Source: a virus. Taken from it: 64,000 nucleotides of DNA. The stretch spans positions 291 to 64,290 of IMG/VR virus record IMGVR_UViG_3300050154_000034; one strand, 5' to 3'. How positions within the stretch are numbered: position 1 is the first letter of the stretch; every line of letters starts with the position of its first letter. The translations under genes and the position numbers were made by a program. Shown here piece after piece: positions 1 to 61,929 of the stretch. Below the pieces are notes generated by a model. That model had not been told where the DNA came from, did not search any database, and saw nothing but the letters and a program-made list of their open reading frames with translations.

Positions 1-234
1 TTTTAAATGGTAGTCTTGTCTTGTGTTCTCGATGTCTATTACCTCTTGCTTAAGAAGTATACCATACTGATTCATAAGTGGCTTTACGTACTCAAGAACC
101 TTACTACCTGATACGTATTGGTATCCAAAGCTCTTGCTGTCTTTACCTAAACCGATAACCTCTTGCTGTATCTTTAGTAGTTTTTGATACAGAGTTAATG
201 ATTGTGAATCATTTGTTGCGACTTGTTTTGCCAT
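1..234 (-). CDS. erf: ERF-family ssDNA annealing protein (N-terminal part, runs off the window)
   Basis: Manual translation MAKQVATNDSQSLTLYQKLLKIQQEVIGLGKDSKSFGYQYVSGSKVLEYVKPLMNQYGILLKQEV matches the ERF N-terminal pattern (LYQKL..IQ, K....YxY, VKP.L...G); not in the ORF track. Confidence 0.75.
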   Translation of the reverse strand, partial: MAKQVATNDSQSLTLYQKLLKIQQEVIGLGKDSKSFGYQYVSGSKVLEYVKPLMNQYGILLKQEVIDIENTRQDYHLK

Positions 235-239
235 AATTT

Positions 240-760
240 AATTTGATTTTACATTTTATTAGCACCCTCTTTCTTATTACTATGCACTGACGTGTTTCAT
301 AGTTCCTGCCTACATAGCTTCGTTCATAATAAGAGTAGGGTCACATAGTTAATAATGGGATTTCAATAGCTTATCCGTACCATCCGCTATAAGGATATTA
401 CAGTATGAACCAGGTTTAATACGCTGACCCCGTTCCTTTTCCCCCACATTACCTTTAATTTTGTATTAACTACTTGCTGAGAACTCATTTGTGTTGTGTA
501 GAACCAATATTCTACCCTTATTTTTGACGGTATGCAGGGTCTCAACCTGTACAACACATCTACCATTACTGATAGTATCTTTATGTAAAACTTACCCACC
601 TATTAGAAGACAACCCAGTTGCCTAATTAGGTATTTACAAAGGTATTCAATGTTTAACCTATTACCAACCTGTGTCTTTCGGAGTTACTGGTTTGCCGAC
701 CTTACTACTAACCCTTTTTCAATGATGTCGAGCCTAACAGTGAGCATTGGTATTATTGTT
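240..760 (-). ncRNA. Candidate large structured non-coding RNA or long leader upstream of erf
   Basis: About 520 nt with no convincing ORF, richer in G/C than its flanks, downstream of a TAAATTTG promoter box, with several hairpins (e.g. GTAGAA-TATTGG-TTCTAC). Confidence 0.3.
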
Positions 761-768
761 CAAATTTA
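761..768 (-). promoter_or_regulatory. Bacteroidota sigma70 -7 box (TAAATTTG)
   Basis: Matches TAnnTTTG; intergenic, just after the stop of 793..1188. Confidence 0.55.
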
Positions 769-792
769 AGTATAATAATCTTTAAAAGCAAA

Positions 793-1188
793 TTAATCTT
801 CTAATAATTTAGGGTATCTAAGTAATATATCCTCACATCGTTTAGTATACTCTTTCATAACCTTAACAGCTTTCTCAACAGTCTTATAGCTAGACCTCTT
901 GCTTTCTGATGTGCTTCTATATCTGTTAAGAAGTTTGTTGTATGAATTGTAACTAAACAACGATGCTGCTTGAAATATTCCTTTGCTAAGTAATATGTCT
1001 AATTCAACTTGTTTTAACTCTTTATACACTGATGACCTAGTACTATATACTCTATATTCGAATCCGTTATCCAAGATTTCCTTTTCAAACTTAAATCCCT
1101 TATAGAATATACATAGGTAATTTCCGAATTTATGCTCAGGCATCTTATACCATAAAGCATTTTTGTATATCTCTTCTTGTTTACTCAT
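793..1188 (-). CDS. Hypothetical protein
   Basis: 131-aa ORF in the minus-strand run with an A-rich start context. Confidence 0.7.
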   Translation of the reverse strand: MSKQEEIYKNALWYKMPEHKFGNYLCIFYKGFKFEKEILDNGFEYRVYSTRSSVYKELKQVELDILLSKGIFQAASLFSYNSYNKLLNRYRSTSESKRSSYKTVEKAVKVMKEYTKRCEDILLRYPKLLED

Positions 1189-58720: not shown

Positions 58721-58945
58721 CTAATCTTCGTGTTTATGTTCAAATTCAACTTCATAACCTAACTTTTTCAACACAGCTTCTAATGAATTTTCTACATCCA
58801 TTCCTATGTAACTGTTGTCATGTACTTCTGGGTTTGGATGTTCTAATCTCTCTCCATTTAGATATAGGTATGTACCATAAGAAGTACAACACCCATCACC
58901 ACATGTATAGTCCCAATCTTCAAGTGTTATTTTTAATTTTTTCAT
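58721..58945 (-). CDS. Hypothetical protein (DYTCGDGCC motif)
   Basis: 74-aa ORF. Confidence 0.7.
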   Translation of the reverse strand: MKKLKITLEDWDYTCGDGCCTSYGTYLYLNGERLEHPNPEVHDNSYIGMDVENSLEAVLKKLGYEVEFEHKHED

Positions 58946-59790
58946 AATAGATTTTTAAATATGTTAGTAACTACATCTACAGTCCAACTATTACCAAGTG
59001 CTTTGTATCTTTGAGAAGAACTAACTCCTGATGTGTAGTCGTCTGGAAACGTTTGTAATCTTTCGCATTCAATTTCGGTTAACTTTCTGCCTTTCTATTT
59101 TATAACTCCATAAGGAACTCCTTTATACATATTAGCTGTTAAGCAAGCAGCTTTGCCATCTAATTTGTTTGTGTGATAATCCCATCTTGGTTTTCCATTC
59201 CTCAACCTAGACATATAATCTCTAGCAGCATCACTTAAGTAGTACTTATCGCTTGGAGAATCAACCAATATATCTTGAAGTTTAAGTTCTTTATCTTTAG
59301 GTTGTTCTACTCCATCTATATTAGTCCAGTAATATCTAAGTCTGTTTTGAGCAGATACTAATGAACTGTTTATAGATATAGGTTGAACACCGAGATAACT
59401 AGATATAACATCTTGATATTGTTGCTTCATTCTTACGTTCTCAAGTAAGAACTTCACACTTGGATTTAATAACCTAATATGATTCAGTATATTTACATAC
59501 TCAAAAAATAACTTACTTCTTTCGTCTTTAAAGTTTAGTTGTTTACCAGCAAAGCTAAATCCTTGACAAGGGCTTCCACCTATAACTAAATCTATCTTTG
59601 AAAAATCAATATCCCAATCTCTCCAATTAGAAATGTCTCCTAACTGATTCGTGTTAGGATAGTTTTTCATTGTAACTTGCATAGCACACCTATCTATCTC
59701 GCTAGAGTAGTAGTTATCTATTTTTACTCCTGCTTTATTTAAAGCAACTTGACCAGCACTTATACCGTCAAATAGACTTAATATATTCAT
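58942..59790 (-). pseudogene. dcm: C5 cytosine DNA methyltransferase interrupted by an in-frame TAG at 59095-59097
   Basis: LSLFDG, GGSPCQGFS, ENV and QNRLRYYW motifs; the frame continues past TAG as KGRKLTEIECERLQTFPDDYT...RYKALGNSWTVDVV (motifs IX-X) to TGA at 58942. Confidence 0.85.
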
Positions 59791-59984
59791 AATCCTTTTT
59801 CTTTTTTAAATATTTCTAATAGTTGTTTTGATGTTGTATCTTTTTTTACAAGTTTTAAATAATGTCTTAATAATACCCACTCTGAAAACTCAATAGCGTA
59901 ATCATCTGCTATTTTCATAAATGTTTCGTGTGGGTCTTGGTCATCGTAATTCTTGATTACTTCTAATTTATCTTTTAGTGTCAT
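59787..59984 (-). CDS. Hypothetical protein
   Basis: 65-aa ORF ending LLEIFKKEKGL. Confidence 0.7.
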   Translation of the reverse strand: MTLKDKLEVIKNYDDQDPHETFMKIADDYAIEFSEWVLLRHYLKLVKKDTTSKQLLEIFKKEKGL

Positions 59985-60181
59985 AACTTTTTTATTTCTT
60001 GTTGAACTTCTAAATAAAATTGAACTTCTTTATTATTTAAACCATATAGATTATGATGACTTCTTAATATCTCATCAACTGCTATTAATGCATATTTTTT
60101 AGCTATTTTATGTTTTGGTTCTTGTACTTCCCAAAACTTATAAAATAATTCTTTTGCCTTTTCTTTTGGTGTCATAATCAA
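59981..60181 (-). CDS. Hypothetical protein (MTPKEKAKEL family)
   Basis: 66-aa ORF with ALIAVDEIL. Confidence 0.75.
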   Translation of the reverse strand: MIMTPKEKAKELFYKFWEVQEPKHKIAKKYALIAVDEILRSHHNLYGLNNKEVQFYLEVQQEIKKL

Positions 60182-61929
60182 AATGGTATATCATCGAACG
60201 CATCTTTTGGATCAATAAATATTTCTGTTTTAGGTTTATAAATAGGAGATACGTCATCGTTGTACTCTCCAATAATGTACGGCAATCCATCGTCATTAAC
60301 CGAATAATCAAAGTCAGCTATCGGGAATCCACGAGTATGTGTAAAGTGAGCAGTGATATGTGTGTCATTATTAACAACAGAACAAACTGTCTCAGCTTTC
60401 TTTAACACAGAACTACCAATGTGACCAACCGCCTTAGCACTTCCGTAGTTGGAGTGAAGAATTGTTGTTAAGTGAAATTGCTTATCATCTGTCCATTTCA
60501 TAATCTTTTGAATAGCACTTTGACTTTCTTTTAAATCATTGAAGTCATCGACTAAATCTGCAAGTCCATCAATACCAACCAATCCGATATTATCTTTCAT
60601 ATCACTCTCGTATATCAACCACTCTATAAACTCAAGACGCTGCTTAGGTTCGTATGGTCTCAATGCAAATGGTTTATAGAATTCACACTCTGTATCACCA
60701 GTCATGCGTAGAACCCTTTTAAATACGTTTTGAGCGTGAAAAGCTGATTGCTCAGTATCAATATCAATAACAAAACAATCTCTGTCCCTGTGGCTTTTAA
60801 TTGAGTCTGCATATTGATTGGTTTTACCACCGATGTATGATGCCATAATCATAGACTTTAAGAAAGTCTTTTTAGATTTAGATGCACCAACAATACAAGA
60901 GAAGTTTCCGTATGTACCAAAAGGTATAGGGAATACTCTAGTTCCTAAACTATGTTCTCCTATACTAATAGCTACTGGAGGGTACTCAATCTTCTTGCGT
61001 ACATCAACAAATGAACTATCGTATATGTTTTGAAAGTTTATGTTAACCTTCTTCTCAGACTGAATAGATGCTGGTGCATAGTCATCAAACTTAACATCCT
61101 CGCTAAATACTTTAGTATTGAATAAGTGAGACTTTCTATATGCACTCTCTACGCAGTTTCTTATCTCCTCTTCATCGAATCCGTGATGAGCAAATTGCAT
61201 CATAAATCCTTTGGCTTCTAACTCACTAATACCAAATTCATTGAATGCCATAGATAGGATATAAACATTTCTGTTTCTTTCTCCTTCTACCATTCCATAC
61301 CTTTCGCTCCACCACTTCATCAATCCAGATATAATCTTTTGATTATCCTGAACCTCTACCTTGAATTCTTTCTTTACAATCTCTTTATGCTTTGCCTTAT
61401 CTCTAAAAACATCACTAACTTTATTGATAAAGATGTCCTTATCAGAACTCATGTAGCATATTCTACTTTCATTTACACAACTCTCATCGAAATACTTTGA
61501 GTTATAATATTCTTTAAGTGCTATGAAATGAGATCTATGGTCTTTTATTTCTTTTGGTATTCTTACAATCAACTTAAGACCGTCTCCAGAAGGCGATGTA
61601 AACACAGAGTATGTGAATACATTATTAATTAGATAATCTCTATAGTCGTTTAATGATTGTGAATCTTCGAACCCATCAAAGTCAAGACAAATGAAACCAC
61701 TGTGATTTACAAAAGCATCATCACTTCTACTACTAAACTCACCAGAAAACAAGATGCAAGGTAACTTCTTCTTTATCTGATTTCTAGAAGATTTATCTTT
61801 CTCTAGTCTGATAGTCTCAACTATCTCTGAACAACTCTCACTCTTTATCTTACTAAGTACATAGTCTATATCTGCGTACTTAGGTGTTTTAAGTGTGTAT
61901 AAATTATCAAATATTGTTACCTTACTCAT
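60178..61929 (-). CDS. Primase-helicase (BT4734/VirE N-terminal primase-like domain, PriCT, RecA-type AAA domain)
   Basis: FICLDFD, FTSPSGDGLK, GERNRN, Walker A GASKSKKT, IDIDTEQ, IDGLAD. Confidence 0.85.
   Translation of the reverse strand: MSKVTIFDNLYTLKTPKYADIDYVLSKIKSESCSEIVETIRLEKDKSSRNQIKKKLPCILFSGEFSSRSDDAFVNHSGFICLDFDGFEDSQSLNDYRDYLINNVFTYSVFTSPSGDGLKLIVRIPKEIKDHRSHFIALKEYYNSKYFDESCVNESRICYMSSDKDIFINKVSDVFRDKAKHKEIVKKEFKVEVQDNQKIISGLMKWWSERYGMVEGERNRNVYILSMAFNEFGISELEAKGFMMQFAHHGFDEEEIRNCVESAYRKSHLFNTKVFSEDVKFDDYAPASIQSEKKVNINFQNIYDSSFVDVRKKIEYPPVAISIGEHSLGTRVFPIPFGTYGNFSCIVGASKSKKTFLKSMIMASYIGGKTNQYADSIKSHRDRDCFVIDIDTEQSAFHAQNVFKRVLRMTGDTECEFYKPFALRPYEPKQRLEFIEWLIYESDMKDNIGLVGIDGLADLVDDFNDLKESQSAIQKIMKWTDDKQFHLTTILHSNYGSAKAVGHIGSSVLKKAETVCSVVNNDTHITAHFTHTRGFPIADFDYSVNDDGLPYIIGEYNDDVSPIYKPKTEIFIDPKDAFDDIPF

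Follow-up and report, generated by a model that had tools for sequence, protein, structure and literature searches.

Repeated, oriented words in the early regions of phages are already known, and the closest described counterparts of the one considered here are the nut and ops sites, which occur once or twice per operon, in leaders. In the nut/N system of phage lambda, a sense-strand element (boxA plus a boxB hairpin) is located between the early promoters and the intrinsic terminators of early operons that are transcribed by the host polymerase. Here we describe an 11-nucleotide (nt) word that is repeated in the early/middle genes of an uncultured phage represented by IMG/VR record IMGVR_UViG_3300050154_000034 (65,860 bp). 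The stretch analysed, bases 291-64290 of that record, is referred to as the window (64,000 nt). The word reads ATGATTGTGAA on the plus strand and TTCACAATCAT on the transcribed strand, and has the core TCACAATCA. Judged from its sequence context, the word, about ten copies of which are maintained by selection in early/middle genes, is probably a phage-specific signal controlling early transcripts. The reading that we favour, with a probability of roughly 0.3, is that of a nut/ops-like site at which a phage-specific factor acts on the elongating host polymerase or on nascent early RNA, so that terminators are read through.

Like the nut sites, the word is a sense-strand element that lies between early promoters and intrinsic terminators in operons of this type. 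The layout is also similar to that of lambda, with an early promoter, a first small basic open reading frame (ORF) and a terminator, followed by delayed-early and replication genes; terminators separate the immediate-early from the replication genes, and small basic early proteins are encoded nearby. Unlike in nut/N, no conserved hairpin stands beside the word, there is no resemblance to the host rRNA leader, the copies number about ten rather than two, with many in genes, and no N-like protein was recognised.

The second comparison is with ops/RfaH and opsX/UpxY, in which, as here, one identical non-template word of about 12 nt is present at every site of the regulon (PMC11685472, PMC6370827). 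All ops sites of E. coli share one identical 12-nt non-template word (PMC11685472), and specialised NusG paralogs are widely used in Bacteroidota (PMC12691694), which together make such a system plausible in the host phylum. The ops site is single and placed in the 5' leader, whereas the copies described here are dispersed, most of them inside or between genes far from promoters. The opsX site is multipartite, spans about 40 bp and includes a pause hairpin; the copies described here have neither a pause hairpin nor a G(-10)/G(+1) pause signature, and no NGN/KOW protein was found among the scanned phage proteins.

Other phage systems share single features with the word. The targets of T4 RegB (GGAG) are likewise sequence-defined sites limited to early transcripts and enriched between cistrons, with a proposed role in early shut-off, but the site described here is 9-11 nt long rather than 4 and lies outside the ribosome-binding site, and no RegB-like nuclease was found. 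Phage promoters that consist of one element (T4 late TATAAATA; the T7 group) are also compact, oriented and clade-specific words, often near gene starts and sometimes within the upstream gene. In contrast to these, the spacing here is variable and often too short, conserved copies stand just before terminators, neither a cognate polymerase nor a sigma factor was found, and host-type promoters are present. PeSL-type regulatory cassettes are found between small early genes of T4-type phages. They are repeated junction elements in a mosaic early region, and are resembled by a repeat at window 1628-2830 and by an element of the related genome G417 (both described below), whereas the 11-mer has no sigma-A promoter or stem-loop and also occurs inside conserved genes.

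To our knowledge, gene regulation in Bacteroidota phages is almost unexplored. Bacteroidota hosts make no classical use of Shine-Dalgarno sequences and have unusual promoters. What is new here is that the word is not a recognisable promoter, that it belongs to a host phylum little studied for phage regulation, and that it has a measurable link with terminators.

Copies, strand bias and conservation of the word

The early/middle genes are on the minus strand, from window position 1 to about 11,400 and from 52,366 to the end, the two parts being joined across the record ends; the late block (plus strand, about 12-52 kb) contains the virion genes plus GroEL/GroES-like genes. A sequence-only reading of the window had listed eight exact plus-strand copies of the word (Table 1), and on recount all were exact. 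It had seen none in reverse orientation, and this was confirmed, with 0 copies on the other strand of the window and a tally of 9 forward and 0 reverse for the whole genome, where the ninth copy lies at genome position 64506 (it would be window 64216). Far less than one copy had been expected by chance. Dinucleotide shuffles gave 0.08 and reached eight in 0 of 100, and Markov models of orders 1-5 gave at most 0.11 per strand (0.01-0.06 with the sites masked). The 40-kb late block contains zero exact copies, all of them being confined to a block of about 25 kb transcribed from one strand, and the density is highest at the first-transcribed end, as had been claimed, with six copies within the first 6.6 kb.

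The flanks were also as first described, with a pyrimidine after 8/8 copies and a T two bases upstream in 7/8, and the one-mismatch copy at 6305 is real. The near-copy that had been noticed in the virion module exists, although at position 42974 and not at 42975; its codons GTG ATT GTG AAC are common to G000 (the present genome) and the relatives G001 and G003, and differ in more distant relatives. Two more one-mismatch plus-strand matches were found at 32746 and 37672, where chance expectation is 3. A site frequency table built from 32 sites in four genomes contained information solely at R-TTCACAATCAT-(A/C)-A-A, about 14-15 positions, and no second conserved box was found within 50 nt on either side of the word in these sites.

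Relatives were collected via the primase and the portal. The motif was found in the same early/middle block and in the same orientation in four related uncultured phage genomes, with 4-10 copies each. Forward to reverse tallies were 9:0 in G001, 7:0 in G006 and 7:1, for the core, in G416; G003 has 5:0 exact copies plus three of TTCACAATCAC, and ATCACAATCAAC occurs four times in G008. Relatives at a greater distance (portal at most 66% identical), namely G002, G004, G417, MW202828.1 and elemoF, lack the motif, and the early block of the cultured Flavobacterium phage elemoF 6-3D has no comparable repeated word. Megablast of the early region against GenBank phages gave no match, a literature search for the word itself returned primer matches only, and an IMG/VR scan with a 14-mer extension of the word gave just isolated single matches at chance level.

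Copies occur both between genes and inside coding sequences, mostly as Ser-Gln-Ser in the latter (that at 52670 reads Phe-Thr-Ile), and selection had been proposed to act on the nucleotides. Codon alignments show that selection is on the nucleotides and not on the peptide, and it is tied to the transcribed strand: the bases are fixed in orthologs while synonymous flanks, indels and frame change. In the resolvase-like gene, twelve bases are identical in G000, G001 and G003, with variation at neighbouring synonymous sites, and the orthologs in motif-free genomes have other residues at the motif position. In the gene for a short protein of the single-strand-DNA-binding type (SSB-like), the word is unchanged though displaced within an indel-rich linker. 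At the end of the gene for a 66-amino-acid (aa) protein, p66, the word encodes ..NSQS-stop in two genomes, whereas in G001 the frame differs and the reading is ..FTIIN-stop. The primase copy at 61653 is restricted to the present genome and represents a gain. TCA CAA TCA is used exactly in 6/9 Ser-Gln-Ser of early genes, compared with 0/5 in late genes, and TCA makes up only about 27% of Ser codons.

One-strand copies could also reflect a strand-specific DNA signal that does not depend on transcription, such as a T5-kind nick, a priming or replication site, an ejection or packaging site, or a recombination linker for module exchange. T5 nicks are one-stranded in the same way, the gene content of the phage includes a T5 A1-like protein, a primase-helicase and recombination genes of its own, several copies are at mosaic boundaries between conserved and non-conserved genes, and the antisense near-copy in a late gene retains the genome-wide orientation. 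Such a signal is nevertheless improbable, as copies are limited to the block of about 25 kb that is transcribed from that strand and the 40-kb late block has no exact copy, the pattern is asymmetrical about the initiator gene, 11 bp is short for homologous exchange, and the conserved copies within essential genes are no boundaries. Nor is the word enriched in host (Flavobacteriaceae) genomes. A Chi/KOPS-like polar signal of the host, which the sequence-only reading had offered as one identity, was examined in five and then in 401 Flavobacteriaceae genomes; these hold 0-14 copies each, on both strands, near the level of the control word, and the proposal was abandoned.

Placement of the copies and possible modes of action

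In five genomes, 12 of 37 copies lie 0-30 nt upstream of a called start codon, compared with 2.5 expected, and these junction copies often overlap the stop of the preceding gene. Distances vary freely, from 0 to 26 nt for the start and from about -22 to +23 nt for the stop, and the remaining copies are inside genes, where all three frames are used. In our view the excess at junctions mainly reflects the low cost of accommodating an 11-base word there, and not a need for proximity to a start.

The same excess is consistent with a single-element middle promoter, read by the host RNA polymerase with an unrecognised phage sigma-like or appropriator protein, in the manner of T4 late promoters, or by an unrecognised phage polymerase. 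This explanation has the highest prior, conserved oriented words of 10-20 bp before phage genes usually being promoters. About a third of the copies are 0-26 nt upstream of start codons, G001 and G416 each have a copy directly after the leader terminator, sister lineages have other conserved words directly upstream of early genes, and dozens of small early proteins have no assigned function. However, the word has neither a second element nor an AT-rich upstream region; several copies are merely 0-6 nt from the next ATG, others are 0.3-1.5 kb from any downstream start, the best-conserved copies stand 100-400 nt before terminators with no intervening gene start, and the G000 leader copy stands 10 nt before one. 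Each unit is already headed by a host-type promoter, no phage RNA polymerase or sigma factor was detected (many ORFs have no family assignment), and the large virion proteins contain no virion RNA polymerase motifs (DFDxD, T7 motifs B and C). A middle promoter is thus unlikely, and the phage-factor promoter suggested in the sequence-only reading is weakened by the spacing, by the missing second box and by the host-type promoters that serve both blocks. Two specific forms were rejected: a Bacteroidota sigma-A promoter (-7 TAnnTTTG, -33 TTTG, AT-rich upstream), no such box being present in the word or its flanks, and a bipartite promoter, there being no second box.

For G000, G001, G003 and G416, terminators were examined along the sense strand of the early/middle block. 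At 11 of 18 strong hairpin-plus-T-run sites a copy was found 20-500 nt upstream, where 2.75 were expected, and 0 of 10,000 permutations reached 11. The arrangements recur: in G000, G001 and G003 a copy lies 100-122 nt ahead of the terminator located between the SSB-like gene and the replication genes, and another 308-405 nt before the block-end terminator, while in G000 and G416 copies stand beside non-coding leader terminators. Two copies bracket the non-coding leader RNA of about 390 nt in G416, and a copy marks the 3' end of the leader RNA in G000. It is through this link between copies and downstream terminators that an antitermination or RNA-binding site, also among the identities first proposed, became the best fit, though no factor was identified.

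Under the nut/ops-like reading, R-TTCACAATCAT on the non-template strand would be a cis-acting site that is recognised while the early/middle operons are being transcribed or shortly afterwards. Host-type TAnnTTTG promoters head each transcription unit, and the host polymerase therefore transcribes these operons. A phage-specific factor would read the word either in the nascent transcript or in the exposed non-template strand of the DNA, and would alter the handling of downstream terminators by the host RNA polymerase, in a short-range antitermination of the nut or ops kind; such a short range of action would account for the many copies. A process coupled to transcription is indicated by the sense orientation and the restriction to one block, and also by the fact that the element is one compact word, is placed without regard to codon position and stands before terminators. 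We infer that the reader would be a phage protein, with p68, p66, a clade-restricted 131-aa protein (window 793-1188) or the first early ORF as candidates, and that the effect would be read-through rather than termination or decay.

An effect on decay would draw on much of the same evidence. An endoribonuclease or RNA-binding protein, of phage or host, might recognise UUCACAAUCAU in early transcripts, and the resulting cuts or marks would separate cistrons and strip transcripts of their protective 3' terminator hairpins, which would shut off early messages in the course of infection. The sense-only copies limited to early/middle transcripts and the enrichment at intercistronic junctions are as expected for such a determinant, cuts at the copies located 100-400 nt before terminator hairpins would separate these 3' stabilisers from the message, and the copies that bracket the leader RNA in G416 or mark its 3' end in G000 are suitably placed for processing. 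Cuts within the SSB-like, primase and resolvase genes would, however, leave messages without stop codons, the search for a candidate nuclease found none, the copies showed no sign of selection for an unpaired context, and a small protein that specifically reads 9-11 nt of single-stranded RNA would be unusual. We consider RNA decay or processing an unlikely function of the word.

Several other RNA-based identities were rejected. A mimic of the rRNA boxA was not supported, as 80 Bacteroidota rRNA loci contained no match (at most 2 mismatches) that recurred at a fixed position, the phage host being unidentified. Pairing with 16S rRNA was limited to an 8-mer located in a paired helix, in 14/80 loci. 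Phage non-coding RNA (ncRNA) targets were likewise not supported, the anti-motif on the sense strand and in the leader ncRNA being no better represented than shuffled words. No conserved RNA structure was detected, and a hairpin between word and flank (GATT..AATC) is formed at some copies only and is not general.

Among the candidate factors, p68, the 131-aa protein and the ERF-like gene are present in all motif-bearing complete genomes and in 0/3 motif-free ones. The p66 gene occurs in G001 and G003, where its orthologous end has the motif, and in 0/3 motif-free genomes. The p68 and p66 proteins and the first ORF are basic, yet have no family match, and the structure model of p68 is a plain helical hairpin. 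A further alternative is a duplex-DNA operator, an oriented roadblock or silencer to which a small phage DNA-binding protein such as p66 or p68 would bind in shutting off the early operons. Exact words of 9-11 bp are typically what proteins recognise in duplex DNA; both p66 and p68 are very basic, clade-restricted and adjoin copies, the p66 gene end always being accompanied by one; and MW202828.1 has, at similar places, 14 copies of a 16-bp perfect palindrome with the look of a dimer operator. On the other hand, a sense to antisense ratio of about 35:1 is needless for a duplex operator, the word has no dyad symmetry, no recognised DNA-binding fold was seen in the p68 model, and the copies do not lie over promoters. 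The chance that the word is such an operator is slim.

Several observations weigh against the nut/ops-like reading. With about ten copies, many of them in genes, the distribution is unlike that of the known sites. The terminator count includes orthologous arrangements repeatedly and, when these are collapsed by our own count, falls to about 5/10 compared with about 1.5 expected. For about two thirds of the copies no intrinsic terminator is visible within 500 nt downstream, the first leader terminator has no upstream copy in G001, G003 and G416, and read-through of the block-end terminator would have no obvious use. An apparent excess of predicted RNA accessibility disappeared when compared with the same word transplanted to random places. 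Finally, no NusG/KOW, sigma, N-like or nuclease match tied to the motif was found among about 50 early/middle proteins.

Genome organisation and neighbouring features

The record ends share an overlap of 169 bp with one mismatch, located within the ERF-like gene (window 1-234 and beyond 64000), and the genome is therefore complete, assembled as a circle or circularly permuted; the IMG/VR listing for the record is linear. By its predicted proteins the phage is placed among the Flavobacteriia podophages. The large terminase has 64.5% identity to that of the uncultured record MW202828.1 and is about 42% identical to those of Flavobacterium 'elemo' phages; Cellulophaga phages also match, at <60% identity. 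The early/middle block contains numerous small ORFs with no assigned function. Nucleases encoded there are a YqaJ-type exonuclease, an HNH endonuclease and a DUF1064/resolvase-like nuclease, and they are accompanied by an ERF-like recombinase and a short SSB-like protein whose tail is acidic; further products are ThyX, MazG, a C5 methylase, a primase-helicase, an O/DnaD-like replication initiator and a T5 A1-like protein. Neither a DNA polymerase nor an RNA polymerase gene was recognised in the whole genome, and replication seems to depend on the O/DnaD-like initiator, the primase-helicase and host enzymes.

Bacteroidota-type promoters (TAnnTTTG, often followed by CA, with AT-rich DNA upstream) head the late operons, with strong plus-strand TAnnTTTGCA boxes at window 13260, 16106, 25587, 31674, 34237, 34338, 35219 and 42846, and similar boxes were found at five sensible places in the early/middle block. 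The late genes appear, from these boxes, to use unmodified host sigma-A promoters. The coordinates of the motif copies and of the features around them are given in Table 1.

Table 1. Copies of the word and associated features, in window coordinates
Feature	Position	Strand	Context
Motif copy	198..208	-	26 nt into ERF-like recombinase gene
Motif copy	3804..3814	-	14 nt before stop of 50-aa ORF, 17 nt before next ATG
Motif copy	5380..5390	-	Overlaps stop codon of 66-aa basic protein gene
Variant copy ATCACAATCAT, core TCACAATCA intact	6305..6315	-	Within 592-aa gene
Motif copy	7600..7610	-	Within peptidase-like gene, Ser-Gln-Ser frame; not in G001 ortholog
Motif copy	9385..9395	-	Intergenic; abuts TGA stop of 68-aa basic protein gene; next ATG 2 nt downstream
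Motif copy TTCACAATCAT	10367..10377	-	End of ~500-nt non-coding leader, 10 nt upstream of hairpin + T-run
Near-copy TTCACAATCAC	42974..42984	-	Antisense to late gene; status ambiguous
Motif copy	52670..52680	-	DUF1064/Holliday-junction-resolvase-like gene; ~390 nt upstream of block-end terminator
Motif copy	61653..61663	-	Variable loop of primase-helicase gene
Host-type -7 box TAAATTTG, first early promoter	11413..11420	-	
Further similar host-type -7 boxes	761-768, 57469-57476, 53970-53977		
Terminator-like hairpin, -14 kcal/mol, then T-run	10327..10357	-	Directly downstream of copy 10367
tRNA-like minihelix: acceptor-like stem + T-arm GGGGTTCGATTCCCC	10218..10258	-	Between leader terminator and first small genes
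Bidirectional terminator hairpin ending early/middle block	52254..52277	-	
First early ORF, 117 aa, lysine-rich, no family match	10962..11315	-	G416 homolog in same position
p68, 68-aa very basic protein	9396..9602	-	Only in motif-bearing genomes; putative candidate recognition factor
p66, 66-aa basic protein	5378..5578	-	Present in G001, G003; putative candidate factor

The minihelix is not peculiar to the present genome. Comparison of the window with the leaders of G001, G003, G416 and MW202828.1 showed that all the genomes examined have tRNA-like minihelices with a GGTTCGATTCC-type T-arm, located after the leader terminator and ahead of the first early genes, and in G001 the motif sits within the equivalent minihelix. 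ARAGORN, run on the window and on five relative loci, called no tRNA, and Rfam and tRNA scans gave no match.

The 592-aa early protein (window 5571-7349, minus strand) has no family match. In its AlphaFold model (pLDDT 83) the N-terminal part is helical, the middle domain is GNAT-like and the C-terminal part is a long series of beta repeats; the candidacy of the protein as a hidden polymerase was rejected on the basis of this GNAT-like domain and the beta repeats. A sequence search of the PDB with the 1146-aa and 938-aa proteins returned nothing useful. A 100-aa protein (L044:1433-1735, minus strand, window-equivalent 64142-64444) ends in DDDSDDLPF, an acidic tail of the SSB type, and downstream of its gene are a conserved strong terminator and then the replication initiator gene. 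In the late block, the GroEL/GroES-like pair (window 13448-15279, plus strand) is adjoined by a divergent 174-aa gene (15538-16062, minus strand) with its own TACATTTG promoter. The MW202828.1 gene at the equivalent place is annotated as 'repressor protein', and the Atlas neighbours of the 174-aa gene were uninformative.

Repeated elements of sister lineages and significance

Other repeats were observed in the window and in the sister lineages. At window 1628-2830, small genes in tandem are joined by identical stop/start junctions, made up of seven minus-strand copies of ATTTAAAAACAAATAAGAT-ATG, and the shorter junction context AATAAGATATG recurs in the cultured elemoF phage. G417 (L363-L364, record 37.8-41.2 kb) has eight variable, covarying GC-rich hairpins, each followed by the fixed 20-mer ACGTCATATACTAATCTTAA, with an ATG 12-18 nt after the element and each copy ahead of a small early gene. 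The early block of MW202828.1 (L366, record 43.7-55.2 kb) contains fourteen copies of the 16-bp perfect palindrome GTGTCGTTAACGACAC, nine of them 16-39 nt before starts and five inside genes. All are downstream of the first host-type promoter of that block, the only one in its first 7.5 kb, and 12/14 lie before the next one, 7.5 kb on. Lineage-specific repeated early-operon elements are thus a general trait of this phage group, whether or not their function is shared.

A wider proposal, which we regard as tentative and on balance doubtful, is that the Flavobacteriia podophages of this group may run their early operons by pairing a small factor with a short site, each pair being specific to a lineage. 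The linear 9-11-nt word would be one such site, recognised either in nascent RNA or on the non-template strand; its range would be no more than a few hundred nucleotides, hence its repetition before each terminator, while sister lineages would have swapped in other words or hairpins.

This work provides a compact selected element, lists of its sites in five genomes, an association with terminators and a short list of candidate factors, and these candidate sites and factors offer a directly testable way into the timing of early genes in such phages. If the word proves to be an ordinary promoter or operator, the result would be the routine annotation of a new phage clade. If a factor-site pair is confirmed, it could become an orthogonal control part for Flavobacterium and Bacteroides genetics, and if the proposal of short factor-site pairs holds true, it would represent a minimal, modular system of elongation control that has not been described for Bacteroidota phages.

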